DNA of 64,000 nt from Phormidesmis sp. (lineage in GTDB: Bacteria; Cyanobacteriota; Cyanobacteriia; Leptolyngbyales; Leptolyngbyaceae), in assembly GCA_965248535.1 (NCBI GenBank), contig CBDFJR010000005.1, positions 1,984,001 through 2,048,000 on the forward strand, read 5' to 3'. The number at the start of each line of letters is the position of its first letter. Positions within the stretch are counted from its first letter, which is position 1. Both the position numbers and the translations under genes were made by a program. Of the stretch, positions 20,055 through 60,854 are shown in pieces. Under the pieces are notes generated by a model. That model ran no database searches. It was not told the origin of the DNA and was given only the letters and a program-made list of their open reading frames with translations.

Positions 20055-22601
20055 TTACGATCGGTCGCTGACCGTGGCGACTAGCTCTTTTTCATCGTCA
20101 AAGGCAGGGCGTTTTTGACCCCGTTCTTCGACGTGCACCAAACTGGGGTCTTGTTGATCCGTGTTGACAAAATGACGGAAGCGCATCAGCTTTGTAGGAT
20201 CGGCGATCGTCGCCTTCCATTCACAGGCGTAGGTCTCGACTTGATGGGCCATTTCTGCCTCTAACTCAGCACAAATGCCTAGAGAATCCTGAATCACCAC
20301 TTGCTTAAGGTAGTCGATGCCGCCTTCGAGTTTGTTGAGCCAAGTTGCCGTGCGCTCCAATCGGTTGGCGGTGCGAATGTAGAACATTAAGAAGCGATCG
20401 ATATATTTAATCAGCGTCTCTTTGTCGATGTCTTCCGCAATCAGTTGCGCGTGTTGAGGTCGAATGCCCCCATTGCCGCAGACATAGAGATTCCAGCCGT
20501 TTTCGGTGGCGATGATGCCAAAGTCCTTGCTCTGCGCTTCAGCACATTCTCGCGTGCAGCCAGACACCGCAGACTTGAGTTTGTGAGGGGCCCGCAGACC
20601 ACGATAGCGAAGCTCAACCTCGATCGCCAGAGAAGTCGAGTCTTGCACCCCAAATCGGCACCAAGTGCTGCCCACGCAAGATTTCACCGTTCTCAGCGCT
20701 TTGCCGTAGGCGTGTCCTGACTCAAACCCGGCTTCGACTAACTGCTGCCAAATCAGGGGAAGCTGATCGACCCGTGCACCCAATAAATCGATGCGCTGCC
20801 CGCCCGTGATTTTGGTGTAAAGTCCGAATTCTTTAGCGACTTCGCCCAGAGCGATCAGGCTATCGGGCGTGATTTCTCCACCGGGAATGCGCGGAATCAC
20901 CGAGTAAGTGCCGTCTTTTTGAATGTTGGCAAGATAAGCATCGTTGGTGTCTTGCAGCCCGACGTGTGGCGAATTCAGCACATAGTCATTCCAGGCCGAT
21001 GCGAGAATTGAGCCAACAGCGGGCTTACAAATTTCGCATCCTTTGCCCTGTCCATGCCCTGCTATCAACTCGTCGAAGGTCTCGATTCTTTGAGTGCGGA
21101 CTAGGTGATAGAGTTCTTGGCGAGAATAGGCAAAGTGTTCGCAGAGGTGATTTTTGACCTCAACTCCGGCTTTCTTTAACTCGTCTTTTAGCAGATCAGT
21201 GACGAGGGGAACGCAGCCCCCACAGCCCGTTCCGGCTTGGGTGCATTTTTTGACGCTGGCGATATCCGTCAACCCCTGATCCTGAATAGCGCTGCAAATC
21301 TGCCCTTTAGTGACGCTGTTGCACGAGCAGATTTGGGCCGTGTCGGGCAGACTCTCAACCCCCATAGCAAAGCTTGATTTGCCTTCGCGGGGCGGCAGCA
21401 GCAGATCTTCTGGGTGCGGTGGCAGCACGATCTGATTTTGCATCAGTTGCAGCAAATTGCCATAGGCAGAAGCATCGCCAACCAAGATGCCGCCGAGGAG
21501 CCGATCGCCCGATTCGTCAACCACGATCTTTTTGTAAATGCCCTGAATCGAGTCAATGATCGCGAACTCTTTTGATCCCGGCGTTTTGCTGAAGGCATCG
21601 CCAAAACTGGCGACATCTACGCCCAGCAGTTTGAGCTTGGTAGACATATCTGCGCCCGTAAAAGCGCTGCTGCCACGATCGCAGAGATTATCAGCCGCCA
21701 CCGTGGCCATCGTGTAACCGGGAGCCACTAGCCCAAAGATACGGTTATCATAGAGCGCGCATTCTCCGATCGCATAGATATCAGGGTCAGACGTTTGGCA
21801 GTGGTCGTTGATGACAATGCCGCCCCGATCGCCCACCGTTAGCCCACAGTCACGCGCAATCTCATCACGGGGACGAATGCCCGCAGAAAACACGATCATA
21901 TCGGTCTGAAGCTCGCTACCGTCGGCAAACTGCATTTTGCTCACGCAGCCATTTTCACTGACGATCGCTGTCGTCGATTTGCTAGCGTGAACCGTGACCC
22001 CCAATTCCTCAATTTTATTTTTAAGCACGGTGCCGCCCGCGTCATCTACCTGCACAGGCATCAGGCGAGGAGCGAATTCAACGACGTGGGTTTTGAGTCC
22101 CATGCTTTTGAGGGCGTTAGCGCATTCTAGACCCAGCAATCCGCCGCCAATCACGACCCCAACTTTAGACTGTTTGGCGTGAGCCGCCATCGCTTCGAGA
22201 TCGTCGATCGTGCGATAGACAAAGGTGCCCTGGGTGTCTTTTCCCGGAATCGGCGGCACAAAGGGATAGGAACCTGTCGCAATCACCACGTTGTCATACT
22301 CAATTGTGATGCCATTCGCAGAGGTGACCGTCTTGCGATCGCGATCAATAGCGATCGCTTTATCACCTACGTGGATTTGAATGTCGTGATCTTGATAAAG
22401 TCCGGGTTTGACCAGAGTCAAATCAGCCGCAGTTTTGCCTGAAAAGAAACCGCTTAGGTTGACCCGATCGTAAGCAACGCGAGGTTCTTCACAGAAGGTA
22501 ACCAGGTGCCAATCGTCGATCGCTTGCTTTGCGATCATCTGTTCTAAAAACTTGTGACCGACCATGCCGTTGCCAATGACAACCAACGTCTTTTTAGTCA
22601 T
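20055..22601 (-). CDS. nirB: NAD(P)H-dependent siroheme nitrite reductase, large subunit (enterobacterial NirB type)
   Basis: FAD motif IGNGMVG, NAD motif GGGLLGLE, two BFD-like Cys clusters, KSCVGSTWC and SGCTRECAE siroheme/4Fe-4S motifs. Confidence 0.95.
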   Translation of the reverse strand: MTKKTLVVIGNGMVGHKFLEQMIAKQAIDDWHLVTFCEEPRVAYDRVNLSGFFSGKTAADLTLVKPGLYQDHDIQIHVGDKAIAIDRDRKTVTSANGITIEYDNVVIATGSYPFVPPIPGKDTQGTFVYRTIDDLEAMAAHAKQSKVGVVIGGGLLGLECANALKSMGLKTHVVEFAPRLMPVQVDDAGGTVLKNKIEELGVTVHASKSTTAIVSENGCVSKMQFADGSELQTDMIVFSAGIRPRDEIARDCGLTVGDRGGIVINDHCQTSDPDIYAIGECALYDNRIFGLVAPGYTMATVAADNLCDRGSSAFTGADMSTKLKLLGVDVASFGDAFSKTPGSKEFAIIDSIQGIYKKIVVDESGDRLLGGILVGDASAYGNLLQLMQNQIVLPPHPEDLLLPPREGKSSFAMGVESLPDTAQICSCNSVTKGQICSAIQDQGLTDIASVKKCTQAGTGCGGCVPLVTDLLKDELKKAGVEVKNHLCEHFAYSRQELYHLVRTQRIETFDELIAGHGQGKGCEICKPAVGSILASAWNDYVLNSPHVGLQDTNDAYLANIQKDGTYSVIPRIPGGEITPDSLIALGEVAKEFGLYTKITGGQRIDLLGARVDQLPLIWQQLVEAGFESGHAYGKALRTVKSCVGSTWCRFGVQDSTSLAIEVELRYRGLRAPHKLKSAVSGCTRECAEAQSKDFGIIATENGWNLYVCGNGGIRPQHAQLIAEDIDKETLIKYIDRFLMFYIRTANRLERTATWLNKLEGGIDYLKQVVIQDSLGICAELEAEMAHQVETYACEWKATIADPTKLMRFRHFVNTDQQDPSLVHVEERGQKRPAFDDEKELVATVSDRS

Positions 22602-22673
22602 TATCCGCAATTCTCTGTAGCGCCATTCCTTGCTAGACTACGCGCATTTTTTAGATGTGACTAGTCCAAAACT

Positions 22674-31563: not shown

Positions 31564-32535
31564 TTAACTCCAGAACAGATTGATTCCATATAAATAAAGC
31601 GGAATTCCTACCAAAATATTAAAGGGAAAGGTGACTGCCAAAGCCGTCGAAATATATAAACTAGGATTGGCTTCAGGAACGGTGAGCCGCATCGCCGCAG
31701 GAACGGCAATATAAGACGCGCTGGCACAGAGAACGGCAAACAATAGCGCATTGCCCGGCGACATTTGAATCACTTTGGCGATCGCGATACCAATTCCAGC
31801 ATTAAAGATTGGGATTAAAATCGCAAACGAAATCAGAAACAAGCCCGCTTTTTGCAAATCCTGAATTCTTTTAGCAGCAACCAGCCCCATGTCTAACAGA
31901 AAAAAGGTCAGCACTCCATAAAATAGATCTTGAGTAAAAGGTTTCAAAGCCTTTTCGCCGTGCTCTCCGGTCAAGATGCCAATGATAATGCTGCCAAACA
32001 ATAAAAACACTGAGCCGTTAAAAAACGACTCTCGCAAGATTTCTCCCCAATCAAAATCTTGTCTGTCTTGATTTACGGCAAACACTTTCACTAAGATTAA
32101 ACCCGCCACGATCGCGGGTGACTCCATCAATGCTAGCGCTGCCACCATATATCCGTCAGAGGCAATGCCAAGCTGGTCGAGAAAAGAGCCAGCCGTGATA
32201 AACGTGACGGCACTAATGGAACCATAGGTGGCCGCGATCGCCGCCGCATTATAAGGATCTAACTTGATTCTCAAGATAAAAAAAGTGTAGACCGGAACCA
32301 GACACGACATTAAAACGGCCGCCCCAATGGACAACACAACGCTCTGAGTCATGCCGCTCTTAAACAATTCTGAACCGCCCCTAAACCCGATCGCGATTAA
32401 TAAATACAACGAAAATAACTTGGGAATCGGAGACGGAATTTCAAGATCAGACTTGACCAAAACAGCCGACATTCCTAAAAAGAAAAATAAGACAGGCGGA
32501 TTCAAAAGGTTGGACACGACTAGGCTGACATCCAT
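31564..32535 (-). CDS. sbtA: Sodium-dependent bicarbonate transporter, SbtA family
   Basis: YGSISAVTF, ALMESP, ASASYIAVPAA, TFPFN. Confidence 0.9.
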   Translation of the reverse strand: MDVSLVVSNLLNPPVLFFFLGMSAVLVKSDLEIPSPIPKLFSLYLLIAIGFRGGSELFKSGMTQSVVLSIGAAVLMSCLVPVYTFFILRIKLDPYNAAAIAATYGSISAVTFITAGSFLDQLGIASDGYMVAALALMESPAIVAGLILVKVFAVNQDRQDFDWGEILRESFFNGSVFLLFGSIIIGILTGEHGEKALKPFTQDLFYGVLTFFLLDMGLVAAKRIQDLQKAGLFLISFAILIPIFNAGIGIAIAKVIQMSPGNALLFAVLCASASYIAVPAAMRLTVPEANPSLYISTALAVTFPFNILVGIPLYLYGINLFWS

Positions 32536-46357: not shown

Positions 46358-47848
46358 TCACTTGTCAATAAATACCCAAGCTTCACTCCAATCGTCGGGG
46401 ATGCCTTGCTCGATCAGAGATTCGACTCGTTCTAGATAGAGTTTTGCAGTTTTATCAGCCGGGTGAATGGCTAACACCTGCTCAAAACAAAGTTTGGCAT
46501 CGTTGATATCGCGATCGCGATAGCATTGAACGCCGCGATCGAAGTCAGGCTGAGTTTTTAGCTTCAGCGATCGCACCTCTTCAACTTCTGCATCCAAGAC
46601 TTCATAGACTGAGATTGCCTCATTGCGTCCTTTGACGATCGCCCGATCTAAAAAGCGAATCTGGTAGCGATCGGGGTTGCTGAGATGCTCTAGGGTTTGA
46701 CCCGAAATGATCATGGCAACGCCATAAAACTTGGTCAACCCCTCTAGCCGCGAGGTCAAATTGACGTTATCTGAAAACGCATCGCCCTGAATGCGGTTCG
46801 CTTCGCCGACCATGCCTAACATCATCTGCCCAACGTGAATGCCAATGCCCACCTGCACGGGCAAATTACCCCTCGCTGTGCGCTGCTGGTTATATTCTTG
46901 CACTCGCTTTTGCTTGGCCACTCCTGCGGCCACCGCATCATCGGCCCCATCAGGAAACACCGCCATCATGCCGTCACCCAAAAATTTGACGATGATGCCA
47001 TAGTGATTGCGAATCTCTGGGCTGACCCGCTTGAGGTAGGCATTGACAAAATCAAAATTTTCTCGCGGGGTCATCGTTTCTGACATGGTGGTGAACGATC
47101 GAATGTCGCTAAACATCACCGCCATCATTTTGCTAACATAATCGCCTAACTGCACCTCAGTCACGCTGTCTTTGCGAAGAAATTTGAGATATTCACCCGG
47201 AAAAAATCGCGCAAAAGAGTCATTTAATCGCTTTAATTCCTGTTCGCGAGTTTTCACCGTTTTGACCATTTGAGTAAACACGCGGGCGAGTTGTCCTAGC
47301 TCATCAGGACGATCGACGACATCACTCAAGCTCTCCGCCACAAAGGTGTCTTGCTCAACTGTCACCGCCGCATTGGTCAATTTATCCACCTGTTGAATAT
47401 AGAGCGCCTGGCGCTGGTTTTCGTCGCGCAGCATTGCCTCGGCTTCTTGGCGCTTGAGCAGATTGGTATAGGCTTTGGAGTGATAGCGAATGCGGGCGAG
47501 AAGCTCAACCCGATCGGGCAACTTGACCAGATAATCATTGGCTCCTAGCTCAAACGCTTGAGCTTTGATCACAGGCTCTTCTTTGCTCGACAGCACGATT
47601 AGCGGAATGTGATAGGTGGGGGCATCGTGCGATCGTAAAAACCGCACCAGCAGCAGCCCATCCATCTGGGGCATGACGAGATCTTGCAAAATCACCGTGG
47701 GCTGACACTCTCTAGCGATTTTGAGGGCTTGAGTGGGGTCGCTGCAATAGTGAAAGGTAATATCCGGTTCAGACCCTAGCATTCGCCGCACGGCTTCCCC
47801 GATCATGGATTGATCGTCAATCAGCAACACCGTGATCGCATCGTTCAT
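46358..47848 (-). CDS. WspR-like receiver + HAMP + class III adenylate cyclase + TPR
   Basis: REC DDQSMIGEAVRR..LQDLVMP..DYLVKLPD..RIRYHS; HAMP DELGQLARVF; cyclase FSDIRSFT, KFLGDG, GDAFSDNVNLTSRLE. Confidence 0.93.
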   Translation of the reverse strand: MNDAITVLLIDDQSMIGEAVRRMLGSEPDITFHYCSDPTQALKIARECQPTVILQDLVMPQMDGLLLVRFLRSHDAPTYHIPLIVLSSKEEPVIKAQAFELGANDYLVKLPDRVELLARIRYHSKAYTNLLKRQEAEAMLRDENQRQALYIQQVDKLTNAAVTVEQDTFVAESLSDVVDRPDELGQLARVFTQMVKTVKTREQELKRLNDSFARFFPGEYLKFLRKDSVTEVQLGDYVSKMMAVMFSDIRSFTTMSETMTPRENFDFVNAYLKRVSPEIRNHYGIIVKFLGDGMMAVFPDGADDAVAAGVAKQKRVQEYNQQRTARGNLPVQVGIGIHVGQMMLGMVGEANRIQGDAFSDNVNLTSRLEGLTKFYGVAMIISGQTLEHLSNPDRYQIRFLDRAIVKGRNEAISVYEVLDAEVEEVRSLKLKTQPDFDRGVQCYRDRDINDAKLCFEQVLAIHPADKTAKLYLERVESLIEQGIPDDWSEAWVFIDK

Positions 47849-47873
47849 GGCAAACCCGACAAGAGAATCCCGA

Positions 47874-48899
47874 TTAACGCCTGATGGCGGTGCGGTTTGT
47901 CAGCGTGGCGGCGATCGCTTCTGGGTTCAGCACTTCAACCGCCGCGTTTAGTTCAGCCGCCGCTCTAGGCATCCCATACACCGCGCAGCTTTCTTGGTCT
48001 TGAGCGATCGTGTGCCAGCCCAGATCTCTAAGCGATCGTAGCCCTTCGGCCCCATCTCGCCCCATGCCTGTCAGCAGCACGGCCGTGCCTTGAGTCGCCC
48101 AATAGTGAGCCACACTCTTAAAAAATACGTCGATCGACGGCCGATAGGGATAGTCAACAGGTTCTCTAACATAGTTCAGCGTTTGGTTAGACTGCAAACA
48201 GAGATGATCATTGGTGCAGGCTACCAAAACCACGCCCTTTTGAGGACGATCGCCCACTGCGGCTTTCTTGACGGTGAGGGGTGTTAGTTGATTAAGCCAG
48301 TCCACCATGCCGCCCGCAAACTGAGCATCGACGTGTTGAACGATGACGATCGCGGCTTCTAGATTGGCAGGCAAGCGAGACAAAATAATCGACAGCGCTT
48401 TGGGCCCGCCCGTCGAAGACCCGATCGCGATCAGAGGCAGTGACGATGACGAGGGCAGCGGCACCGTGGGAAGGCGCAGCGGAGTCGATAGCGACGGATT
48501 GGGCTTGCCCGCGATTTTAGCAATCATGGCAATTTTGCCAAGGAGAGCCAGAGCGCCTCCGGGAGTGCCCTGATCGCCCAAAACAGGAGTGTTGACGGCA
48601 TCAAGCGCGCCATAGCCCATCGCCTCAAAGACTTTTGCCGAGTTTTGCTCAATGCTCACCGTCACAATCAAAATCGCGCAGGGTGAGCGTTTCATAATTT
48701 GCCGAGTCGCCTCGACCCCATCCATCACGGGCATGATCAGATCCATCAAAATCAGGTCGGGGGTGTTTTTGGCACATTTGTCTACTGCCTCGGCCCCGTC
48801 TTTGGCGATCCACACAATCTGATGGTCAGCGATCGTCAACACCACTCGTCGCAGCGCCTCGATCGCGATAAACCTATCGTTAACGATTGCGATTTTCAT
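47874..48899 (-). CDS. cheB: Chemotaxis methylesterase CheB (WspF-like)
   Basis: [11 protein letters not shown]; catalytic GSSTGG, QH, GMGRDG. Confidence 0.94.
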
Positions 48900-48900
48900 A

Positions 48901-51707
48901 TCACTCACCAATCAAATCCACAACAGCCCGAATTAGCGTATCGTCGTGAAAGCTGCTTTTGGTTAAGTAGTAGTCTGCGCCAGCCTCTAGCCCTTGCACC
49001 CGATCGTCTTCGCGATCGCGATAAGACACCACAATCACCGGAGTCGCCCTCAGTCGAGGATGTTTTTTGATGGCCTTAATCAGTTCAATCCCGTTCATTC
49101 GCGGCATATCAACATCACTGATCACTAAATCATAAGGAGACGATCGTACCGCATTCCAGCCTTCCATTCCATCAACGGCAACGTCAACCAGATAGCCGCG
49201 ATTTTGCAGCAGCTTCCGCTCCATTTCTCGGACGGTGATCGAGTCGTCTACCACCAGCACTCGCCTTGGCTCTTTGCGAGGAGAAGGATTTAGAGTCAGG
49301 CTTTCAGACTGAGTTGCTGCGGACATGACTCTCGCGATCGTGCCCTCGTTGAGGAGAGTATTTGTCGATCGCACTAGATCAGACACATCGACAATCAACA
49401 CCAGCGACCCGTCGCCCATCAGGGCGGCCGCACTAATATCTTGCACTTTGCCGAGTCGAGCATCGAGCGGCCGCACCACCAGTTCTCGTTCTCCGAGGCA
49501 GCGATCGACCACTAGCCCATAGGTGTTGGTCTGATCGCTAATCACCACTACCCAAAGCGGGTCAGACAGCGACGAGGGCGGCGGCAAATCGAGCACTTGA
49601 TGGACAGGGATCAGACCAATATTTTTCTGATCAAGGGTGAAATATTGCCGCGTTTCGACCCCAAAAATCTCCGTAGGTTTAACCGCCACAATTTGATCAA
49701 TGCGCGCCAGAGGAAACGCATAGGACTCGCCCGATATCTCAACGAGCAGAGTCCGCACGACGGAGAGCGTTAGGGGCAGTTGAAAATAAAAGCTCAGTCC
49801 TTTGCCAGGTTGAGAGGTTGCCCGCACGGTGCCGCCCACTTCTTGAGCCATGCTTTGAGCAATGTCTAAACCCACGCCCCGCCCAGAAAGCTCAGTGACT
49901 TGTTTGGCCATTGAGAAGCCGGGGAGAAACAAAAACTCCATCAGTTCGGCTTCGGTTAGCTGGGCGGCGACATCGGGCCCCACTAACTTTTTGTCTACAA
50001 TTTGCTGGCGTAGTTTCATCGGTGCCAGACCTTTGCCATCATCGGCGATCGTGATTGATAACATTCCTCCCCGGTGCATCGCCTCTATGCGAATGGTGCC
50101 TGCGGCAGGTTTTCCGGCGGCGATGCGGTCTTCGGGCAGCTCGATGCCGTGGTCAACGGCGTTTCGCAACATATGGGTGAGGGGAGCTTCTAGCTTTTTG
50201 AGAATGTCGCGATCGACCGACGTAGATTTGCCCAAGATTTCTAGCTTGACTTGTTTTTGAGTCGTGCGGGCGAGATCACGCACCATGCGCGGAAACCCTT
50301 GCACCCCGTCTATAAACGGCCGCATATTGGACGTGATCACTTCTCGATAGAGCCGATCGGAGAGGTTTGCCGATCGCCGAATGAATTCTTCGAGTTCGAT
50401 CAAGCGATCGTTGAGTTGTCTTCGGCATTCTTGATCATGTTGCCGAGTTGCATCCAGCAGCGTTTGCATCGTTTGATCGGCTGAATTCATCAAAGCGTTT
50501 TGCTGCAATTTCTCCAAGTGTTTAGACAGCTTGAGTTGCTGAGATTTGAGCACCCCTAGCGCATCGGCAAACGGCGGCAGCCAATTGGCCTCGATCAGCG
50601 ATTCTCCGGCCAGCCCCATCATGCGATTGAGGTTGTCTGCACTGACTCTCACTACGCGGTCTTGAGACGCTGCCGAGCACTCAGATCAGCAGGACTTGAC
50701 TCGATCTCAGCCTTGGCTTCATGGGCGATCGCTGTCACAACCGCAGGCATGGGCGCGATCGCTTTGGGTGGCGCGATCGTTGCCTTTGGGTCGCGAATTG
50801 CCTCGATCGTGGCTCCTACTGAGGCAAAGTCTAAGTCATGGGCTGCTAGCCAAGAAGCTAACTCACCATCGCTCACCTGACCAAGATTTTGCAGCAGATC
50901 AACGCCTCGCAGCAGCACATCGACCCGATCGCCATCCAAGTCGATCGTGTGGTTTTGAGCGGCAACAAAGCAGTCTTCCATCGCGTGAGAGAGGTGAACT
51001 GCCGCATCTAAACCCACAATCCGAGCGGCCCCTTTGATCGAGTGAGCAGCGCGCATCAAGGCCTCCAACGCCTGAGCCGATTCGGGCTGAGTCTCCAATG
51101 CCAAAAGACCGTTATTTAAAAGAGCCGCCTGAGACTCAACTTCTAGCCGAAATAACTCCATCATTGAGCTATCTAAGAGCAGCGACGGCGGATTAGGTTT
51201 GGGATCTTCGGGGGGTGAGTCGGGCGTAGCGACTTCCTCCTTAGATGTCTGGAGACTTGAAGCGGTTTCTGCTCGGTCTTGTGGCGGTGGCAAGGTCGGA
51301 CTCTCACCCGCGATCGCGGCCTGCGTCTGAGCCACCTCTTCGGCATGGTCAAAGAGCCAGCGATCAAAGTCATCCCCCGTGGCTTGGCTCATCTTCACAA
51401 GCAGATCTCCGGCGTGGAGCAGCCGATCGATGAGCACGTCAGACAAAACCGTTGAGTCGTGCTGCACGGCCATCAATCTGGCTCTCATGGTCTCAGATAA
51501 GTCAGCGACCGCGTTGATTTCTATTAGCTGCGCCGAGCCAGCGATCGCGTGCAGCGATCGGATCGCCGTATCCAATTCACCGCCCAAAGAGGACTGCTGC
51601 TTTAAAATCGATAGACTCTGCTGAAGAGATTTGACCTGAGTCTCAACTTCTTGACGAAACAGATCCAGCATGGAGTAATCGCGCCTGGGGTCTCCACTGC
51701 TCATCAC
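48901..51707 (-). CDS. cheA: Hybrid CheA/WspE (2x Hpt, dimerisation, HATPase, CheW, REC), split by an apparent frameshift near 50670-50690
   Basis: ORF1 has LHAIAG and AAHSIKG Hpt motifs; ORF2 has [25 protein letters not shown]. The frame-2 linker QDRVVRVS continues upstream past the ORF2 start. Confidence 0.9.
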
Positions 51708-52423
51708 AATAAGCTGCGCTCAAGGGCATAAAACAACAGGTCGGCATCTAGATAATTCACCTTTTTGGTTTGCCAGTCAATAATCCCTTGGGTGTAAGCC
51801 TGACTTGCCTGCGACACCACCACGGGCACCTCTTTTAACTCCTTCTCCTGCACCCGATGAATGCGATGCACTTCATCTACCGGAAACACCCACTTGCGAT
51901 CGTCGTGCCCCACCACCAACATTCGACTCAGCGCCGAGCGATCGTGAGCCGACTCTGCTTCACGGTCTAAGCCCAGCAACTGACTCAACGAGACCGTCAT
52001 CAAAATTTCGCCCCGAATGTTGGTCAGACCTAACAGCACATCGTTGCTGCGGTGGGGCAATCGGTGAATGGCACCGAGACGGGTGACCTCGTTAAGCACT
52101 CCCACAGGCAGCGCAAACTGCTCATCGCCGAGACGAAACAAAATCACAGATAGCGTGTCTTTTGACCCTCTAACGGTGTAGAGAGCGGGGTCACGGTCAG
52201 AAGTCTTGAGTGCCAACTCATCGGATGATGCCGCGATCGCCGCCGTCCACTCGTTGAGATAATCGAGCGGAATCTCTCGCTCTAGTAAACTGCGCCCCAC
52301 GGTGGCATAAACCGGGCAGTTGCGGCAGTGAATCACCGTCTCTAGCTGACTGCACGAGCGATCGCCCTTAACGCCAATTTGATTCCAGCAATCGTTGATC
52401 TCAGCAGACAGACTTGTCAGCAT
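51704..52423 (-). CDS. cheW: CheW (WspD-like)
   Basis: CWNQIGVKGDRSC..HCRNC N-terminus typical of WspD; LPHR..NIRGE. Confidence 0.92.
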   Translation of the reverse strand: MLTSLSAEINDCWNQIGVKGDRSCSQLETVIHCRNCPVYATVGRSLLEREIPLDYLNEWTAAIAASSDELALKTSDRDPALYTVRGSKDTLSVILFRLGDEQFALPVGVLNEVTRLGAIHRLPHRSNDVLLGLTNIRGEILMTVSLSQLLGLDREAESAHDRSALSRMLVVGHDDRKWVFPVDEVHRIHRVQEKELKEVPVVVSQASQAYTQGIIDWQTKKVNYLDADLLFYALERSLL

Positions 52424-52429
52424 TGCACA

Positions 52430-54046
52430 TCACACTTTAAATTGAGAAATTTCTCGCTGCAAGCCCTGAGCCGCGTCATCTAACTGAGTCAGCGCATTGT
52501 TGGTTTCTTGCAAAGACTGCACGGTTTGATAAGACGCGTCGCTGAGTTGCCCGATCGCCAAGCTAATCTGCTCTGCCCCGCGATATTGTTCATCCATGCG
52601 CTGGCTGACGGCCGAAAATTGCGGCGTTAACCCCTGCACATTTTGAATAAATCCAGCAATTTGTTGACTAATGTCCCCTACTTCGGTCACATATTGCCCC
52701 ACTTCTTTGCTAAATTTATCGACCTCCATCACGCCCGTAGACACCGATGATTGCATCTCTTTGACCATCTGTTCAATTTCGAGAGTGGCCACGGCTGACT
52801 GATCGGCAAGACGACGAATTTCTCTAGCCACGACTGCAAACCCGGCCCCATATTCTCCGGCTTTTTCGGCCTCGATCGCGGCATTCAGCGATAATAAATT
52901 AGCCTGATCGGCCACTTTAGTAATCGTAGTCACGACCGTGTTGATATTATTCGCTTTCTCATCCACCACCGTTAACTTTGATGAGATTAAATTTGTCGCC
53001 AGCACTAAATTTTGCATGGCTGACTGCATTTTATTGAGATTGGTTTGGCTGTTGGCGGCCGATTCTGTCGTGGTGTGGGCCGTTGCCGCTACGCCATCCA
53101 TTGATTTTGCTAACTCGCCTGCCGTTGACGCAATTTGTCGAGATGTTGCATTCACCTCGTGCATGGAGGCCACTTGTTCATTGACGGTCGCTTCAAGCTG
53201 TCTGCCCGCCGCCGCGATCTGAGTCGTAGACGTGCTGATCTGAATGCCAGATTTTTGGGCCTGAGTGATCAAAGCACTCAAATTTTTGGTCATGTTGTGA
53301 AACGACCTCATTAGTTGCCCCAATTCAGTATTGGTTTGAGTGTCTGTGATCGACTGCGTTAAATCGCCATCGGCAACCTGTTGCGCCACTTTTGAAACCT
53401 GACTCAGCGGCTGTGTGATCTGGCGATTGAGAATCACACCAATTAATGCTAAGAGAAAAATTCCGATCGGCATTCCATATAAAACGCTGTCTAGCGTGCG
53501 CCGGGCCGAACTCTCTGCAACCTGCGATCGCTTCTGCAACAAATCGCTCTCTCCGTCCTTCATGCGAGACACGGTATCACGGATCTGATCCATCAGTCGC
53601 TTGCCCTCACCGCTTTGCACCACTTTTAGCGCTGCATCCGATCGATTGGCTTGTTTAAGTCGAATGGTGCTGTCAAGCTCCGTCAGTTTTTGGTTAGCCA
53701 GAGAATCTAGGGTCTGAACATAGCCCTGCTGAGTGGGGTTATCTTGGACTAATTGCTTGAATTGCTCAAGTTTTTGTTGAATCGCCGATCGGGCTTTGTT
53801 GTAGGGGGTGAGATAGCGGGAATCGTTGGTCAACAAATAGCCGCGCTGCCCCGTTTCGGCATCTTTGACCAGCGAAAGAATCTCTTCGGCTTGACTCAAC
53901 ACTTCATAGGTGTGCTTTTCGTCACGAGACGTTGAGATAAATTGCTCGGTGCCGCGATAAGAGATAATGCCGATCGTGGTAAAGATTGCCAACCCCAACG
54001 CAAAACCCGCAGTAATTTTAGTCCTAATTTTCCAGCGATTTAACAT
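52430..54046 (-). CDS. Methyl-accepting chemotaxis protein (WspA position) with CHASE3-like sensor and HAMP
   Basis: DAETGQRGYLLT; ANLLSLNAAIEAEKAGEYGAGFAVVAREIRRLA. Confidence 0.95.
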   Translation of the reverse strand: MLNRWKIRTKITAGFALGLAIFTTIGIISYRGTEQFISTSRDEKHTYEVLSQAEEILSLVKDAETGQRGYLLTNDSRYLTPYNKARSAIQQKLEQFKQLVQDNPTQQGYVQTLDSLANQKLTELDSTIRLKQANRSDAALKVVQSGEGKRLMDQIRDTVSRMKDGESDLLQKRSQVAESSARRTLDSVLYGMPIGIFLLALIGVILNRQITQPLSQVSKVAQQVADGDLTQSITDTQTNTELGQLMRSFHNMTKNLSALITQAQKSGIQISTSTTQIAAAGRQLEATVNEQVASMHEVNATSRQIASTAGELAKSMDGVAATAHTTTESAANSQTNLNKMQSAMQNLVLATNLISSKLTVVDEKANNINTVVTTITKVADQANLLSLNAAIEAEKAGEYGAGFAVVAREIRRLADQSAVATLEIEQMVKEMQSSVSTGVMEVDKFSKEVGQYVTEVGDISQQIAGFIQNVQGLTPQFSAVSQRMDEQYRGAEQISLAIGQLSDASYQTVQSLQETNNALTQLDDAAQGLQREISQFKV

Positions 54047-54116
54047 ATGCCCAGCTTACCAAGACTCACTTCTAGAGTAGCGTAGCAACGCCCGCGATCC
54101 TTCAGGCTGATCAAGG

Positions 54117-55283
54117 TCAAGCGTCTAACAACCGTTGAATGCGCTGTTTTAAAATCGCTGACCCTGCCCGATCGCCCTTCTGCTCTTTTAACAATGCCAG
54201 ATGAGTCATCGCTTTATAGGCGTTGGGGTTGAGATAGATGGCCTTTTGAAACGCCTGTTCTGCTGGCTCTGGCTGATCTAGCGCTTGATAAATCTCACCC
54301 AACAGCAGATAAGCCCGATCGTCGGTTGAATGAGTCGTTAGATAAGAGTTGCACAGGGCGATCGCGTCTCTAAGCTGCCCCCGATCGGCAAGGTGTTGAA
54401 TCGTTTCAAGCTTCAGCATGGGTTGAGAAGGAATGGATTTAACAACGGGAGCGGGAATCGCAGTGGGCACGATCGTAGGCAATCGGCGCTCTGCATGACG
54501 AGGCTCTTTGCGATAGCTAAACGCAAACGGATGGCGAATCGGGATGAAGTGGGGAGCGGTAACTTGGGCGGTTTCGGCTGCGCCCACAAACAGCAAACCT
54601 GAAGGCGCTAACGCTTGATCTAGCTGCTCAATCACCCGATGGCGAGAAGCCCGATCGAGATAGATCAAAAGATTGCGGCAGAAAATAGCCTGATAGTTTC
54701 CCTGAGCCAAACGCACAGAATTGAGCAAATTTCCCTGCATGAAGTTGACCGTATTGCGAACAAACGGACGAATTTCGTGGCCAGTTTCAACAGGTTCAAA
54801 ATAGCGCGATTGAGCCGTCACGTTGCCCCGAAAGGACTGTTTGCCATAAATTCCGCCTTTGGCTTTGAGCAAGGCGCGCTGACTAATATCAACAGCATCG
54901 ACTTTAAACTGAGCCGGGGTCAATCCAGCGTTGAACAGCGTCATGGCGATCGAATAGGGTTCTTCGCCCGTTGAGCAAGGCGCACTCAAAACCCGAAACA
55001 CGCCAGCCGGGTGAGCCGATCGCCACTCGGTGACAAACTGATGCAAATAAACAAAGGGTTCACGATCGCGAAAAAACCAGGTTTCGGGCACCACCACCGT
55101 TTCGATCAGGGTATCCATTTCTTTAGGTGATGACTGCAAGTGCGCGAGATAAGCGGCCCGATCGGGCAATCCACATCCCAATCTGCGGCGATCAACAGCG
55201 TGAGCGATCGTGTTAGACCCAATGCTGCTGGCATCTAAGCCAATTTTTTGTCTCAGCAGCCCCTCAATTGTGTCTTGCACCAT
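54117..55283 (-). CDS. cheR: CheR methyltransferase + TPR (WspC-like)
   Basis: VPETWFFRD, SAPCSTGEEPYS, IFCRNLLIY; C-terminal TPR. Confidence 0.94.
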   Translation of the reverse strand: MVQDTIEGLLRQKIGLDASSIGSNTIAHAVDRRRLGCGLPDRAAYLAHLQSSPKEMDTLIETVVVPETWFFRDREPFVYLHQFVTEWRSAHPAGVFRVLSAPCSTGEEPYSIAMTLFNAGLTPAQFKVDAVDISQRALLKAKGGIYGKQSFRGNVTAQSRYFEPVETGHEIRPFVRNTVNFMQGNLLNSVRLAQGNYQAIFCRNLLIYLDRASRHRVIEQLDQALAPSGLLFVGAAETAQVTAPHFIPIRHPFAFSYRKEPRHAERRLPTIVPTAIPAPVVKSIPSQPMLKLETIQHLADRGQLRDAIALCNSYLTTHSTDDRAYLLLGEIYQALDQPEPAEQAFQKAIYLNPNAYKAMTHLALLKEQKGDRAGSAILKQRIQRLLDA

Positions 55284-55286
55284 GCC

Positions 55287-55739
55287 CTAAGCGCCCCCAA
55301 TAAACAGCCGTGTAGATTGGGCCTCCGCCACTAGAGGCTGCCAATAAATCTGTTGAATCATGCCTTTTTCATCCATGAATAGATTGCCTAAATAGGGCAC
55401 GTCGTTAGTCGAAGTCACGTCTGTTGAGTCTAAGTCAGGTCTGCTCAGGGTTTCAGTCACCCGCTCTGCCATCAGCCCCAGAGGATAGTTTTTGCCATCC
55501 GGCGTAGTGTGATGAACCATCATCACACGAGTGCTCAATCGTGGACGACAATCGGTGCCGTTCAATAATCGACATAGATCAATCATCGGAACTAAACGAC
55601 CGCGATAATTAAAAATACCCGCTACATAAATGGGAACATGATCAACTTTTCGGGGTGTCACCATCGGGATCACCTCCACTACGTGAGTGCTATCGAGAGC
55701 ATAGAGATTATCGCCAGCGTAAAATAGCAACATCAGCAT
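55287..55739 (-). CDS. cheW: CheW (WspB-like)
   Basis: VAGIFNYRGRLVPMIDL, RLSTR, LGLMAERVTET. Confidence 0.9.
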   Translation of the reverse strand: MLMLLFYAGDNLYALDSTHVVEVIPMVTPRKVDHVPIYVAGIFNYRGRLVPMIDLCRLLNGTDCRPRLSTRVMMVHHTTPDGKNYPLGLMAERVTETLSRPDLDSTDVTSTNDVPYLGNLFMDEKGMIQQIYWQPLVAEAQSTRLFIGGA

Positions 55740-55950: not shown

Positions 55951-57414
55951 CTAAATGCCAAAGATAGACTGAATGCGTTTACGAATGTGATCAAAAGAGG
56001 TTTCTTCTTTGGTGGTTGTGCCGATCGTAATGCCTAAACTTTTTAAGACTTCTTGGCGACGAGATAGTTCTTCAGCAATCTTGTCAGCTAAACCTTGATG
56101 ATTGGTTAACAGCGTTTGCAAATTGCTGTGATCGACCACAAATAAAATGGTTTCTTCTAAAGTTCGCAAGGTGGCAGTGCGCGGCATCCCCATCAGCAGC
56201 GACATTTCCCCGATAAACTCACCCGCTCGACGCACGGCAACTTGTTTGTCAATCGACTCTACAAAAACCTCCACTGAGCCAGACAAAATGATATAAAACG
56301 CATCGCCGGGGTCGCCTTCTCGACAGATCGTTTCGGCGATCGTCAGTTTTTTGCGATAGCCTTGCTCAATCACCTGCCGTAGCTCAATTTCACCACACTG
56401 CTGAAAATAGCTGACCTTTCGCAGCAGATCGCGCAGCATCCAGCCCCCGATCGGCTTTTCGGTCTCTTCCAAGTCACCTGCTTTGGCAGCAACCCCGCTT
56501 GTCTGAGCAGTTTGCAGCCAATGAGCCAGTGCGGGCAGATTCTCGATCGTCAGACTAGCAGATGTGGTTTGATCGATGGCCCGATCGCGAAACTCTGCCT
56601 CGATCAAAAACCGCAGGGCACTTTTAATGGAATCCATCTCGATCGGGTCACGAATCCACACCATCAGGTCAAAGGTGAGCGCGTCTGCTGCAATGCCTTT
56701 GAAATAAACCTCTGGTGAAGGAGACGGCAAAACCCGTGGCTCTTGACGGGCCGCCGTTAGCAGCGCTTCTAGCACAGTGAGCGAGTCGCTCTCTTCGTCC
56801 ACCCGCACCGGAATCTCAATCCGACATTTAGGGTCGCGATAGCTCCAGTTCACCACATTATTGTCGAGAAAACGGCTGTTGGGCACAATCACAAACACCC
56901 CATTCACCGTGCGAATCGTGGTGGATCGGATAGCAATTTCTTCGACTGTGCCCGCGAGTTGATCGACTTCAATATAGTCACCCACTTTGATCGGTTGCCC
57001 AAACAGCAGCGTCAGACCACTGATAAAATTACTCGACAAATTTTGTAGCCCGATGCCCACCCCAAGCCCGATCGCCCCCGCAAACACGGCCAAAGAACTA
57101 AGATTGATGCCAGCCGCCTCTAATACGATCAGAAACCCAATCACCGTAATGATGTAGCTGGTAATCGTTGAGAGAGACTCTCGTGTACCGAGTTCTAATT
57201 TGAATCGTGGTAAAACTCGCTCTTTTAGAATTTGTTTGATCGTGTTTGCTAAAACTAAAACAAGCGTTGATTGAATAACGAGTTCAGCAATCGATCCCAG
57301 AGAAAACTTTTCTCCTGCAAACGTGAATAGACTATTACTAAAAGCATTGATAAAGTCCTGAAAAAACTGCTTAGTTTGAATATTTACCCAGTCTAAAGCT
57401 GATTGCAGTTCCAT
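55951..57414 (-). CDS. MscS-family channel with a C-terminal cyclic-nucleotide-binding domain
   Basis: GLGVGIGLQN..NFISG..IKVGD..VPNS; CNB REGDPG..IGEMSLLMGMPRTAT. Confidence 0.93.
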   Translation of the reverse strand: MELQSALDWVNIQTKQFFQDFINAFSNSLFTFAGEKFSLGSIAELVIQSTLVLVLANTIKQILKERVLPRFKLELGTRESLSTITSYIITVIGFLIVLEAAGINLSSLAVFAGAIGLGVGIGLQNLSSNFISGLTLLFGQPIKVGDYIEVDQLAGTVEEIAIRSTTIRTVNGVFVIVPNSRFLDNNVVNWSYRDPKCRIEIPVRVDEESDSLTVLEALLTAARQEPRVLPSPSPEVYFKGIAADALTFDLMVWIRDPIEMDSIKSALRFLIEAEFRDRAIDQTTSASLTIENLPALAHWLQTAQTSGVAAKAGDLEETEKPIGGWMLRDLLRKVSYFQQCGEIELRQVIEQGYRKKLTIAETICREGDPGDAFYIILSGSVEVFVESIDKQVAVRRAGEFIGEMSLLMGMPRTATLRTLEETILFVVDHSNLQTLLTNHQGLADKIAEELSRRQEVLKSLGITIGTTTKEETSFDHIRKRIQSIFGI

Positions 57415-57779: not shown

Positions 57780-60700
57780 ATGAAAGCTCTCTTTCAAGCT
57801 CTAGCTGAAGACTCAGAGCAAATTTTGCTACCTAATTTTCAGGCTGATGGGGATGTGCGATTCCAAACTGTTAGGACTGTTAAACCTCAGATGCTAGTCA
57901 TCATTGATGCAGGGGTTGCAGACTACAAAAGTCTAGCAATGGGTGTTGTTGATGGAGCGATCGCCCTAGTCCTTGATCCCAATCGAGATGGGGTTGAACA
58001 GATTACCGAGGCATTACACTGCTATAGCCCAATTACCCGTTTGCATCTGATCTCCCATGGCTCTCCTAGCTGTATTTATTTGGGCAATAGTCAACTTAGC
58101 CTGCTCACGATCGCTGACTACGCTCCTTTGCTGCAACGCTGGTCTTCCTATCTCAAGAGCCAAATTTTGATCTACGGCTGCGATGTGGCGGCTGGCGATG
58201 CAGGCCGTGAGTTCATTGAGCAGTTGCAGCAGTTGACGGGGGTCGCGATCGCCGCTTCAACCACGCGGATTGGCAGCGCCACCCAGGGCGGTAGCTGGCG
58301 ATTCGACATAACAACCGATCGAGGCGACGTTTCTCCCTGTTTTCAGGATGAAGTCATGAGGGCCTACCCAGCCGCGTTTGCAGCAGGCGATTTAGATACC
58401 AGCTTTGGTAACAATGGCATTGTTGCTGGGCTTGCGGGCGCTGGCGCTGGGCTTGGGCTACAGCCAGACGGCAAACTGTTAGTCACCTCCACAATTCCGG
58501 GTAGCAGCAGTTCCTTCACTCTCAGCCGCTACAACAGCAACGGTAGCCTAGATACTAGCTTTGGCAGCAGTGGCAGAGTGACAGGGTTTAACAATTCTGG
58601 TGAGGATATTCTCATCCAGCCTGACGGCAAAATCATTGTGGCGGGAGACACCCCAGCAACGATTCCATCCTATCCTTCTGGTGCTACATCTTTTTCGGTC
58701 ACTCGCTACAACATTGACGGTAGCCTGGATACTGGTTTTGGCACTAACGGCACCACAGTTAACCATGTGGGCACGGTTCACAACGACCAACTCAGCGCGG
58801 TGCTTCAGCCAGACGGCAAGATTTTACTAGGAGGATATTCGTTCTATACGGGTAGTGATAGCCAGGGTCTTTTAGTTCGCTATAACAGCAACGGCAGTCT
58901 AGATAGCAGCTTTGGTAATAGTGCTCTGCCGGGCGTATCCACAGCATTAATCACCAACGAGCAGAGTTATGGCTTTAGCGTTGCGCTTCAATCTGATGGT
59001 CAGATCATCCTGGCAGGAGCCTCGACGGTCAATCCGCAAATCTCACCGTCGCTGGCGCTCTGGAAATTTAGCCCAACTGGAAGTTTGATTGGCAGCACTA
59101 AAACAGCCTTCACTTCGTTGACCAACTACCAGGTCTTTGCCCCTTCTAACATCCCTCAAGTGGCTGTACAAGCTGATGGCAAGATTGTGGTTGCAGAAGA
59201 TATGTTGTACAACCAACCCTATCAATCTCCCATTCGATACTCCTTTGCCCGATTTAACAGCGACCTTACCCTCGATACTAGCTTCGGGACTGGTGGGGGT
59301 GCAGGCGGTTATTTCCAGGGGAGTAGTTTCCCCTCCTCTGACATAGCACTGAACTACAACAGCCTTGCGCTTCAGCCGGATGGCAAGATCGTTACTGCTG
59401 GCAGACGAGATCAGAATGGAGTCGGCAGTTTCATTGTGGAGCGTCATGGCAGCAACGGTGCTCTAGACAGCAGTTTTGGGGCAGGCGGGGGAGTTTTGAC
59501 CAATTTTGGCAACGGCAACGCCAGTGCTTCAAATTTGGTCATTCAGCCTGATGGTAAGGTGGTTGCTACAGGAACCGCAAACGGCAGTTTTACCCTAGTG
59601 CGCTACGTTGGAGTCAGCAGTGGGGTTAACCAGGCTCCTACCGACATCAGCCTAAGCAATACTAATCTCTTCCCATTCCAAATCCCACAGCCAGGAGCTT
59701 TTCTGATTGGCAACTTCTCAACGGTTGACCCTGATGTTAGCGATCGCCACTCCTACAGACTGGTATCAGGTGTTGGGGATACCGATAATGGCTTGTTCTT
59801 AATTCAAGGAGGGAATGGATTTTACCTGGCACCCAATACAAGCACCACGCAAAAGCAAACTTACAGCATTCGGGTTCGCAGCGATGATGGTCGAGACGGC
59901 ACCTTTGAGAAGTCGATTATTCTCAGCACTGGGAATCTAGCACCCGTGGCTAGCACCCCGATCGGTGACAAAGCTGTGACGATCGGCTCTCTCTTCAGTC
60001 TTTCCGTCGCCACGACGTTTACTGATCCCAATCCTGGAGATACCTTCACCCTCAACGCCTCCCTCAGCAATGGCAACCCGCTACCTAGTTGGCTCAGTTT
60101 CAACCCTGCTACGGGTCTTTTTAGTGGCACGCCCAGCAGCAGTGATGCGGGTACTCAGTTAATTCTGTTAAGGGCAACTGATCGGGCAGGAGCTTTCAGC
60201 ACCACCAACTTCAACCTGACCGTTAATGGTACAGTTAGCAATCAAGCCCCGACCAACCTGAGTTTGAGCAGCACCAGCATTGCTGAAAATCTGCCAGCTA
60301 ACTCGGTGGTAGGCACATTTACCACGACTGACCCCAATCCCGGCGATACGTTCACTTACTCCTTGGTTGCAGGCATAGGCAGCACCCATAACGCAGCCTT
60401 CAAGATTGTTGGCAATACGCTACGCACAACCCAAGCCTTTGATTTTGAGGCACAATCTACCTACAGTGTTCGAGTTCGCACAGATGATGGCAAGGGCGGA
60501 GTTTTAGAGCGAGTGCTTGCAGTGAATGTTCAGGATGGTAATGATGCCCCGATCGTGGCGACTCCTTTAACCAATCGAACAGCAACTGTTAGCAAAGCAT
60601 TCCGCTATGTAGTGCCCACCAATACCTTCTTTGATCAGGATGTTGCCGCGAATAGTGACCTAGATTGGCTCACTTTAAGTGCAACGTTGAGTGATAGTAG

Positions 60701-60854
60701 ACCGTTACCGAGTTGGCTCCGTTTTAATGCCAACACTGGCACCTTTAGCGGCACTCCTAAGAGTGGTAATGTGGGCAATCTTAACATTGTGGTGAAAGCT
60801 ACTGATGTGCTTGGGGCTTCAGTAAGCTCTAGTTTCATCCTCTCGGTTCAATAG
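57780..60854 (+). CDS. Large surface protein: DUF4347 + delta-60 (beta-propeller) repeats + cadherin/He_PIG Ig-like domains
   Basis: HLISHGSP..YGCDVAAG; repeated LQPDGK..RYNSNGSLDTSFG; NQAPT, FDFE, LPSWL.FN..TGTFSGTP. Confidence 0.88.
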   Translation: MKALFQALAEDSEQILLPNFQADGDVRFQTVRTVKPQMLVIIDAGVADYKSLAMGVVDGAIALVLDPNRDGVEQITEALHCYSPITRLHLISHGSPSCIYLGNSQLSLLTIADYAPLLQRWSSYLKSQILIYGCDVAAGDAGREFIEQLQQLTGVAIAASTTRIGSATQGGSWRFDITTDRGDVSPCFQDEVMRAYPAAFAAGDLDTSFGNNGIVAGLAGAGAGLGLQPDGKLLVTSTIPGSSSSFTLSRYNSNGSLDTSFGSSGRVTGFNNSGEDILIQPDGKIIVAGDTPATIPSYPSGATSFSVTRYNIDGSLDTGFGTNGTTVNHVGTVHNDQLSAVLQPDGKILLGGYSFYTGSDSQGLLVRYNSNGSLDSSFGNSALPGVSTALITNEQSYGFSVALQSDGQIILAGASTVNPQISPSLALWKFSPTGSLIGSTKTAFTSLTNYQVFAPSNIPQVAVQADGKIVVAEDMLYNQPYQSPIRYSFARFNSDLTLDTSFGTGGGAGGYFQGSSFPSSDIALNYNSLALQPDGKIVTAGRRDQNGVGSFIVERHGSNGALDSSFGAGGGVLTNFGNGNASASNLVIQPDGKVVATGTANGSFTLVRYVGVSSGVNQAPTDISLSNTNLFPFQIPQPGAFLIGNFSTVDPDVSDRHSYRLVSGVGDTDNGLFLIQGGNGFYLAPNTSTTQKQTYSIRVRSDDGRDGTFEKSIILSTGNLAPVASTPIGDKAVTIGSLFSLSVATTFTDPNPGDTFTLNASLSNGNPLPSWLSFNPATGLFSGTPSSSDAGTQLILLRATDRAGAFSTTNFNLTVNGTVSNQAPTNLSLSSTSIAENLPANSVVGTFTTTDPNPGDTFTYSLVAGIGSTHNAAFKIVGNTLRTTQAFDFEAQSTYSVRVRTDDGKGGVLERVLAVNVQDGNDAPIVATPLTNRTATVSKAFRYVVPTNTFFDQDVAANSDLDWLTLSATLSDSRPLPSWLRFNANTGTFSGTPKSGNVGNLNIVVKATDVLGASVSSSFILSVQ

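Follow-up and report, generated by a model that had tools for sequence, protein, structure and literature searches.

A cyanobacterial Wsp-type chemosensory operon with a predicted cAMP output, beside a cyclic-nucleotide-binding channel gene

Chemosensory control of cAMP is known from Pseudomonas, in which the Pil-Chp pathway, a system of the type IV pilus class, controls CyaB, a separate membrane protein without a receiver; it is this control of cAMP that the locus described here has in common with Pil-Chp. The Pseudomonas Wsp system (WspA–F and WspR; PDB 3BRE and 3I5A) has a GGDEF output, but exchange of the output on a WspR-type receiver is already known from WspH (PMC8552884) and from the ACF class (PMC3447774), of which the available part of Table S2 has one REC–mononucleotidyl cyclase row. 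In Burkholderia, WspH, a histidine kinase, is joined to the common core through the same receiver; in the available text of PMC8552884, Wsp is reported from beta- and gammaproteobacteria alone, and no output other than WspR or WspH is given. The closest described cluster is that of Phormidesmis priestleyi BC1401 (Chrismas et al. 2016, PMC4971617), in which a cyclic-nucleotide-binding gene is followed by wspB, C, A, D, E and F and by a class 3 adenylate cyclase that replaces wspR. The available text of that paper describes the layout without bench characterization and does not identify the upstream gene as a channel; GGDEF partners were sought at other places of the BC1401 genome, and outputs and effectors were left unclear. 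A 2026 review of bacterial bCNG channels (PMC13591265), which cites Caldwell 2010 and Malcolm 2012, states in its available part that their physiological role is not understood and that there is no structure, and it names no cognate cyclase there.

We analysed a window of 64,000 nucleotides from Phormidesmis sp., which carries on its minus strand, at 46358..55739, a Wsp-type operon with all seven functions in the order B-C-A-D-E-F-R (ORF listing and Pfam; Table 1). Its make-up is that of a Wsp/ACF-class cluster: MCP, two CheW, CheR-TPR, CheB, a hybrid CheA with a receiver, and a multidomain response regulator. Gene order is identical to that of BC1401, and a P. priestleyi protein (P0039) shows 79% identity over the full length; the receiver–cyclase Wsp layout has been in print since 2016. 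The two loci differ in that wspE is split in the present assembly and in that we assign the upstream gene to the bCNG channels. A preliminary description of the window had named the seven components with their functions, coordinates and order, and these stand, except that wspE is two ORFs and not one gene; the operon lies within the limits it gave, but these left out the co-oriented channel gene upstream. No phosphodiesterase gene is present within the operon, and a promoter and terminator scan of the window, with 10 and 13 sites compared with 10.8 and 13.1 in shuffles, was uninformative on the operon limits.

Table 1 Features of the operon and the adjoining channel gene (window coordinates)
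Feature	Position	Strand	Basis
MscS–cNMP-binding channel (bCNG)	55951..57414	-	Pfam MS_channel 1st/2nd/3rd; cNMP_binding E 2.6e-20
WspB-like CheW	55287..55739	-	Pfam CheW E 1.9e-18
WspC-like CheR methyltransferase, C-terminal TPR	54117..55283	-	Pfam CheR E 8e-42, TPR_1; motifs
WspA-like receptor, TM-CHASE3-TM-HAMP-MCP signalling domain	52430..54046	-	Pfam CHASE3 E 9.5e-45, HAMP, MCPsignal
WspD-like CheW	51704..52423	-	Pfam CheW E 1.6e-25
WspE N-terminal part, two Hpt (second with canonical His motif)	50652..51707	-	Pfam Hpt, 2 stretches; motifs at residues 52, 221
wspE linker frameshift site (approximate)	50673..50681	-	two bases more than near-identical strains
WspE C-terminal part: dimerisation region, HATPase, CheW, receiver	48901..50652	-	Pfam HATPase_c, CheW, Response_reg
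WspF-like CheB methylesterase with receiver	47874..48911	-	Pfam CheB_methylest E 3.2e-58; NCBIfam NF009206 above cut-off
Output protein, 496 aa: WspR-type receiver, helical stalk, HAMP, predicted class III adenylate cyclase, TPR-like tail	46358..47848	-	
Output receiver domain, residues 7-121, phospho-acceptor D56	47486..47830	-	Pfam Response_reg
Output HAMP domain, residues 152-199	47252..47395	-	profile comparison 90.7%; helices in model
Class III cyclase domain, residues 241-412; K288, D356 at base-selecting positions	46613..47128	-	Pfam Guanylate_cyc
TPR-like helical tail, residues 423-481	46406..46582	-	model pLDDT >90; profile comparison 72.9%

Pseudomonas Wsp shares with this locus the seven components, the CheR-TPR protein, the hybrid CheA and the receiver–stalk module. 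It differs in its gene order (A-B-C, here B-C-A), its sensor (4HB in the Pseudomonas locus compared, L099; here CHASE3) and its output (GGDEF, here HAMP–class III cyclase–TPR); two Hpt domains are present here, and the two kinases are not sister groups. The assignment of CHASE3, which lies in a receptor with hydrophobic helices at residues 11-29 and 188-206, is firm. The preliminary description suggested that the CHASE3-like receptor may sense a different cue; the sensor at this locus does differ from that of a Pseudomonas WspA, but CHASE3 is limited to one sub-clade of the cyclase systems and the other sub-clade keeps 4HB. That CHASE3 might characterize every cyclase system was rejected on the presence of 4HB_MCP_1 in L030, L031, L035, L036, L115, L116, L119 and L120.

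A 2-base frameshift splits wspE into an Hpt–Hpt ORF and a kinase–CheW–receiver ORF, and the GTG of the latter overlaps the stop of the former by one base. A conserved, naturally split CheA in this lineage was rejected, as wspE is a single ORF in all six relatives fetched with the whole gene. We regard the split as reasonably likely to be an assembly artefact, the consensus of mixed strains: removing the two bases opens a 934-aa frame, the same two bases are missing exactly there in three sequencing runs from two studies, and the tract in the window is what the two observed strain types yield when combined, the pattern expected of a mixed consensus. A real frameshift would leave the pathway broken or altered, with signalling lost or with two polypeptides made by re-initiation at the GTG. 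This we hold to be rather doubtful, the remaining operon genes being intact and conserved, but several observations speak for it. The assembly is otherwise clean, wspE being the sole split gene among those compared with same-genus proteins; Hpt and kinase are also separate ORFs at loci L033, L050, L051 and L062, and the gene is fragmented at L058; and lineages that have lost the output exist (genomes G028 and G030). Moreover, none of the runs matches the window fully (the best shares 0.85 of words), so that none is shown to be the source sample; a further run, X4, which holds a small share, shows no change at the break. The run search listed no RNA data set with the locus and is neutral on its expression.

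The output protein was examined domain by domain. Its receiver, described from motifs as WspR-like, contains those motifs and the residues D11/D12, D56, S87 and K109, which are invariant in a 104-row alignment of homologues. Among solved structures the receiver comes closest to WspR, with 172.8 bits for 3BRE and 166 for 3I5A; PleD follows at 66, and WspR is the top match of the receiver–stalk module both in sequence and in fold. The proposed phylogenetic check placed the WspR-type receivers on one branch relative to 14 host receivers (SH-aLRT 100), a partly circular result given that the ingroup was picked by similarity; the order of outputs is not resolvable from this tree, a quick one of 143 columns in which 55 of 103 branches stay open. 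The host genome has no second receiver of this type, this one scoring 232 bits and the following one 114. A hidden GGDEF partner, such as the 2016 paper supposed for BC1401, was rejected for the present genome, as none of its seven GGDEF ORFs has a WspR-type receiver. Pfam detects Guanylate_cyc but no GGDEF in the output protein, which scores above the cut-off of none among the 25 of 26 NCBIfam families listed. HAMP falls below the Pfam cut-off (20.1 versus 25 bits), although profile comparison with receptor HAMPs recovers it (90.7%, E 1.2e-6; control region 0.3%). The TPR assignment has moderate support, from profile comparison and from two helical hairpins in the model.

By its sequence, the output protein carries a complete adenylate-cyclase active site. 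The catalytic residues listed in the preliminary description are all present: the metal-binding D248 and D292, the transition-state pair N363 and R367, and K288 and D356, which we take to be the adenine-selecting Lys and its Asp/Thr/Ser partner position. Together with the phosphate-binding K406 and the phospho-acceptor D56 they are invariant in 104 of 104 rows. K288 aligns with the Lys of CyaB and OaPAC and with the Glu of the guanylyl cyclase Cya2, and D356 differs likewise from the Gly of Cya2. These residues and their invariance make it improbable that the output is cGMP, or that the cyclase is inactive or outside phosphorylation control and serves as a scaffold via its TPR tail, even though Cya2 (2W01) is the closest solved cyclase by score and the model is weakest in parts of the cyclase (pLDDT <50 at 251-257, 260-265 and 349-357). 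The cNMP cassette of the neighbouring channel adds to that alternative: its Gly-Glu and Arg align with PKG domains, cGMP-dependent kinases are its top solved matches and it has their Arg-Thr, but several orthologous channels have Arg-Ser instead. A homodimer of the output protein was predicted with a score of 0.69, against 0.00 for the best control; the runs share no less than 93% of their contacts, and pLDDT does not fall below 83. Of solved pairs, 20 of 30 attained the mark, as did 1 of 23 single chains, and the prediction may pass it through resemblance to the dimers solved for WspR and for cyclases. Subject to that same resemblance, the modelled interface extends from the receiver along stalk and HAMP as far as the cyclase, with K288 and D356 inside it.

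To place the locus, we surveyed 301 genomes with 50 cyanobacterial Wsp-type kinase loci for their outputs, as had been proposed. Receiver-cyclase is the commonest identified Wsp-type output in the sampled cyanobacteria (17 loci; kinase 15, GGDEF 3). All 16 genomes with a full-length cyclase also hold a Wsp-type kinase, and the two are adjacent in 14 of 17 places. The kinases of the cyclase systems form one clade (support 100/98), and the systems closest to them, also cyanobacterial, have as outputs a kinase, a phosphatase, GGDEF or another cyclase. A clade with proteobacterial WspE systems was rejected (p-AU 0.0151; 32 selected rows, LG+G4), and with it an origin straight from Pseudomonas WspR in which GGDEF was replaced (p-AU 0.015 on the kinase tree). 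Hence the reading of the locus as an output-swapped, cAMP-producing Wsp system fares differently in its two parts: a swap from WspR finds no support as history, whereas cAMP is the best reading of the WspR-type receiver, the adenine-selecting Lys and the single kinase clade. We consider it likely that the locus is a cyanobacterial Wsp/ACF-class chemosensory pathway with cAMP as its output. In contrast to the two outputs and two proteobacterial classes of PMC8552884, in its available text, the Wsp-type loci collected here span many phyla, and at least six outputs occur on the WspR-type receiver; three of these are different cyclases, of which one bears the signature of a guanylate cyclase. Proteins with a Glu/Gly signature are those of L043, L053, L057, L060 and L073.

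By analogy with the Wsp family, the receptor would control autophosphorylation of WspE, which would hand its phosphate to D56; the receiver dimer would then relay the change along a continuous parallel coiled coil that closes the cyclase dimer, with CheR and CheB providing adaptation. For the target of the cAMP, gene context offers candidates. The upstream channel gene, here 211 nt from wspB, adjoins it also in relatives, and cNMP-binding genes are found next to 10 of the 17 cyclase places and none of 32 other cyanobacterial Wsp-type places; non-cyclase loci gave 0 of 52 and 0 of 32 in two counts, with one weak match. These counts stand without a formal test, none being possible because the cyclase systems are one clade. 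Nine of the ten linked places fall in one clade and may reflect a single ancestral event, and the tenth (G279) resembles part of a separate exporter unit. A second candidate is a SulP-STAS-cNMP transporter that accompanies the operon and for which a literature search found no paper; its close subfamily is present in 10 of the 301 genomes, each of them with a full-length Wsp-type cyclase, although the gene lies on another contig in the host genome (G000) and both cNMP genes are unlinked in G060. From this context we tentatively suggest that, in this sub-clade, cAMP may act on the bCNG channel and the SulP-STAS-cNMP transporter, by whose response the pathway would adjust ion or small-solute flux.

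The cAMP might equally feed a general pool serving CRP-type regulators, motility or aggregation, with channel and transporter as neighbours by one ancestral accident, which we likewise rate as possible but short of probable. Consistent with such a pool, the linkage is mostly that of one clade, a cNMP neighbour is absent at 7 of 17 cyclase places, and the bCNG family occurs in 79 of 301 genomes, most without a Wsp-type receiver cyclase, on which ground an obligate bCNG–cyclase pair was rejected. The host's cAMP could also come from or go to other proteins, because its genome encodes four class III cyclases besides this one, together with ten cNMP-binding ORFs, three of the latter of CRP size (199-233 aa). 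A mere accident is at odds with the absence of clear cNMP genes at the non-cyclase loci and with the recurrence of different cNMP genes at different sites: Dolichospermum (L036) has a downstream SulP-cNMP gene that shares 50% identity with the upstream type, Moorena sp. (L033) has a downstream bCNG gene, and a myxobacterium (L053) has kinase–cNMP. It is also at odds with the bCNG gene staying beside wspB-wspC after the operon has broken in G002, G004 and G007. In its fullest form, the ion-flux proposal is that in one clade a CHASE3 array drives its own cyclase and the cAMP directly gates the bCNG channel and a SulP-STAS-cNMP anion transporter, as a complete chemoreceptor-to-ion-flux unit, and that, more widely, the WspR receiver serves as a plug-in socket: on two occasions it would have gained cAMP synthesis and on one cGMP synthesis, in addition to its c-di-GMP, phosphatase and kinase outputs. 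This we advance as a conjecture, possible but short of probable.

Since a cyclase is found at 17 of the 50 loci and GGDEF at 3, it is probably a mistake to annotate cyanobacterial Wsp-type clusters as biofilm switches acting through c-di-GMP. The output protein offers a soluble, single-protein test case for phosphorylation-controlled cAMP synthesis on a WspR scaffold. The locus also points to a candidate signal source for bCNG channels and for the SulP-cNMP transporter and, if the ion-flux reading is true, would supply the former with a first cognate signal.

The preliminary description had read this region as a Wsp operon with an adenylate cyclase in place of WspR. All of the motifs that it quoted were found in the sequence, and its reading was real and right in outline, but it missed the split of wspE and the candidate effectors. 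The GC content of the operon region was unremarkable, and its named relatives were cyanobacterial (Leptolyngbya, Phormidesmis, Nostoc, Moorena and others). Three further genes in the same genome encode a sensor related to the receptor's CHASE3 region (47%, 34% and 28% identity in the order tabulated), and are a possible source of the operon's sensor domain.

Features of the operon, its surroundings and the loci compared (L, loci; C, contigs of the own genome; unprefixed positions, window)
Feature	Location	Strand	Content
wspB	55287-55739	-	CheW (Pfam)
wspC	54117-55283	-	CheR + TPR (Pfam)
wspA	52430-54046	-	CHASE3-HAMP-MCP (Pfam)
wspD	51704-52423	-	CheW (Pfam)
wspE, in two ORFs		-	Hpt; HATPase-CheW-receiver (Pfam)
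wspF	47874-48911	-	receiver-CheB (Pfam)
Output gene	46358-47848	-	496 aa; receiver-class III cyclase (Pfam)
Surface protein	57780-60854	+	1024 aa; DUF4347 / DUF5122 / cadherin / Ig
IS605-type TnpB	12667-13902	-	
SbtA-family bicarbonate transporter	31564-32535	-	
Metallophosphoesterase	5666-6466	+	
Pyridine nucleotide oxidoreductase	20055-22610	-	nitrite/sulphite reductase domains
CHASE3-related genes	C5:2411127-2411894; C2:1787811-1788416; C4:28755-29360		
SulP-STAS-cNMP transporter subfamily	L021:14634-16841; C2:999019-1001229		
Glu/Gly receiver-cyclase fusions	L043:4240-5736; L053:9995-11446; L057:3604-5004; L060:9995-11416; L073:9995-11434		
Operon with tandem regulators	L060:9959-12785		
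Longer output-protein form	L037:10001-11851		617 aa
ORFs upstream of wspB	L115:5556-6533; L116:13564-14559; L118:13587-14597		326-337 aa

The best solved relative of the output protein was P. aeruginosa WspR (3BRE; 172.8 bits, residues 2-150), followed by P. syringae WspR (3I5A; 166 bits), and the next receiver protein scored 66. D56 aligned opposite position 70 of 3BRE, the phospho-acceptor of WspR. Receiver residues D11, D12, D56, S87 and K109 and cyclase residues D248, D292, K288, D356, N363, R367 and K406 did not vary across 104 aligned homologues (four locus proteins and 100 of 120 listed proteins). At the position of K288, CyaB and OaPAC, both adenylate cyclases, have Lys and the guanylyl cyclase Cya2 has Glu; at that of D356, CyaB has Thr and Cya2 has Gly.

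The AlphaFold model (pLDDT 81.7, pTM 0.54) comprised the receiver, a long helix (113-165), a helix-loop-helix to residue 213, the cyclase fold and a pair of helical hairpins, and Foldseek placed WspR at the top, followed by class III cyclases. In profile comparisons the linker matched receptor HAMP profiles (90.7%; control, 0.3%) and the tail matched CheR TPRs (72.9%). A two-copy fold scored 0.69 against 0.00 for the best control, although resemblance to solved dimers may have let it pass; of 30 solved pairs and 23 single chains, 20 and 1, respectively, attained the mark. Runs agreed in at least 93% of contacts with pLDDT of at least 83, and the predicted interface was unbroken from receiver to cyclase, with none named in the TPR tail. 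The receiver-stalk arrangement of WspR has been described (PMC2270323). A longer form of the output protein (L037, P0016-P0027) carries an insert, annotated as PF08448 (PAS_4) in some records, that may provide a second input into the cyclase.

The Hpt-Hpt part of wspE ends at 50652 and the kinase part begins at a GTG overlapping that stop, whereas the gene was a single ORF of 912-1001 aa in all six relatives fetched with the whole gene. In three sequencing runs from two studies (X1, X2 and X3; the four runs used may not include the source sample), contigs were each two bases shorter between 50673 and 50681, and each pattern opened a 934-aa frame; in run X4 the sequence was unchanged. The tract in the window equals the X1/X3 and X2 types combined, as a mixed-strain consensus would give. 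Against an artefact, wspE was the sole split gene among the own-genome genes compared, and it was split or fragmented at five other loci (L033, L050, L051, L058 and L062). We favour an assembly artefact as the probable cause of the split, with appreciable doubt.

Among 301 genomes sampled from the class, 23 had a match to the output protein: 16 held it at full length, at 17 places, and 7 matched over the cyclase part only. The Wsp-type kinase occurred at 50 places in 49 genomes, among them all 16 with the full-length cyclase protein. The cyclase lay next to the kinase operon at 14 of its 17 places. Outputs at the other 33 kinase places, labelled with custom profiles built on Pfam-typed proteins, were histidine kinases (15), GGDEF (3), a phosphatase, another cyclase and a truncated receiver-HAMP (1 each); at 12, no output gene was seen within the stretch fetched. 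Across all species, the best 80 of 565 confirmed stretches, which are no census, showed the WspR-type receiver across many phyla, joined to phosphatase (34), GGDEF (16), kinase and cyclase outputs.

Several loci depart from this arrangement. The Wsp-type operons L126 (G028), L147 (G030), L124, L125 and L128 have a kinase in the cyclase clade, and the output-protein query found no WspR-type receiver in their genomes (positive controls in one search only); their output may have been lost or replaced. In the two closest relatives, G002 (L020, L159) and G007 (L025), an interruption splits the operon after wspC and before wspA, and the channel, wspB and wspC are kept together on another contig. At L111 (G182) and L109 (G165) the cyclase gene lies outside the operon, in G182 close to a Cache-HAMP-cyclase and a further MscS-cNMP gene. 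In the second sub-clade of the cyclase systems, an ORF lies directly upstream of wspB (L115, L116 and L118), with no Pfam match and, for L115, no NCBIfam match.

On the same strand, 211 nt upstream of wspB, lies a gene that joins an MscS channel to a cyclic-nucleotide-binding domain with an intact cassette. Its product is by sequence a bCNG channel, of a family whose role is described as not understood in the available text of PMC13591265. In relatives, a SulP-STAS-cNMP transporter gene lies beside the channel gene or replaces it. In the window, the 1024-aa surface protein gene, divergent from the channel gene, occupies the position that SulP-cNMP holds in relatives. Genes for cNMP-binding proteins stood beside 10 of the 17 places with this cyclase and none of the 32 other Wsp-type places in cyanobacteria, several stretches stopping at contig ends; an earlier, partly overlapping set gave 15 of 36 and 0 of 52, with one weak control match (E 0.001). 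The own-genome background was 10 cNMP-binding ORFs in 5.03 Mb. The close SulP-cNMP subfamily (at least 61% identity) occurred in 10 of the 301 genomes, all with this cyclase, and relatives at only 38-43% in 13 further genomes. The link has limits: bCNG genes were present in 79 of the 301, mostly without the Wsp-cyclase pathway; the own-genome SulP gene lies on a different contig from the operon, and the cNMP genes of G060 are not linked to it. Nine of the ten linked places form one clade, and 6 of 9 scanned members of that sub-clade, the window not counted, have a strong or weak CHASE3 or CHASE3-like sensor. L033 (Moorena sp.), L036 (Dolichospermum) and L053 (a myxobacterium) are possibly independent cases of linkage. 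The channel and the transporter are candidate effectors of the pathway.

In a tree of 32 selected rows (a wider FastTree was also built), kinases paired with this cyclase formed one clade (100/98) within a mixed-output cyanobacterial branch (98/96). Their grouping with proteobacterial WspR systems was rejected on these rows (p-AU 0.0151). Cyclase domains on WspR-type receivers fell on three separate branches (SH-aLRT 100 each), two of them among non-Wsp cyclases: the window's Lys/Asp type, a second Lys/Asp type (L048, L052, L056 and L127), and a third bearing the Glu and Gly of Cya2 (L043, L053, L057, L060 and L073), which therefore probably makes cGMP. The last loci, one from a cyanobacterium and several from non-cyanobacterial records, are candidate Wsp-type cGMP pathways. 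The cyclase of L053 is adjoined by a kinase-cNMP gene, and the L060 operon closes with two tandem WspR-type regulators, one a cyclase and one a PP2C phosphatase. The WspR-type receiver is therefore a socket that accepts many kinds of output, with no direction of change implied.

A Wsp-type operon with a cyclase output is of a kind that has been published before and is common among cyanobacteria. The cluster of P. priestleyi BC1401 has a cyclic-nucleotide-binding gene ahead of wspB, C, A, D, E and F, with a class 3 adenylate cyclase at the usual wspR position; regulators and effectors are left unclear in the available text (Chrismas et al. 2016, PMC4971617). Mononucleotidyl cyclase is listed among ACF outputs, and Table S2 holds one row of this type (PMC3447774); PMC8552884, in its available part, describes output exchange (WspH) and reports Wsp in beta- and gammaproteobacteria only. 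We found no experimental work on this output cyclase in the literature searched, which left most subscription papers outside, nor any paper on SulP-cNMP fusions. What is new here is the receiver and kinase phylogeny, the three separate recruitments of a cyclase and a link to bCNG and SulP-cNMP proteins that can be tested.
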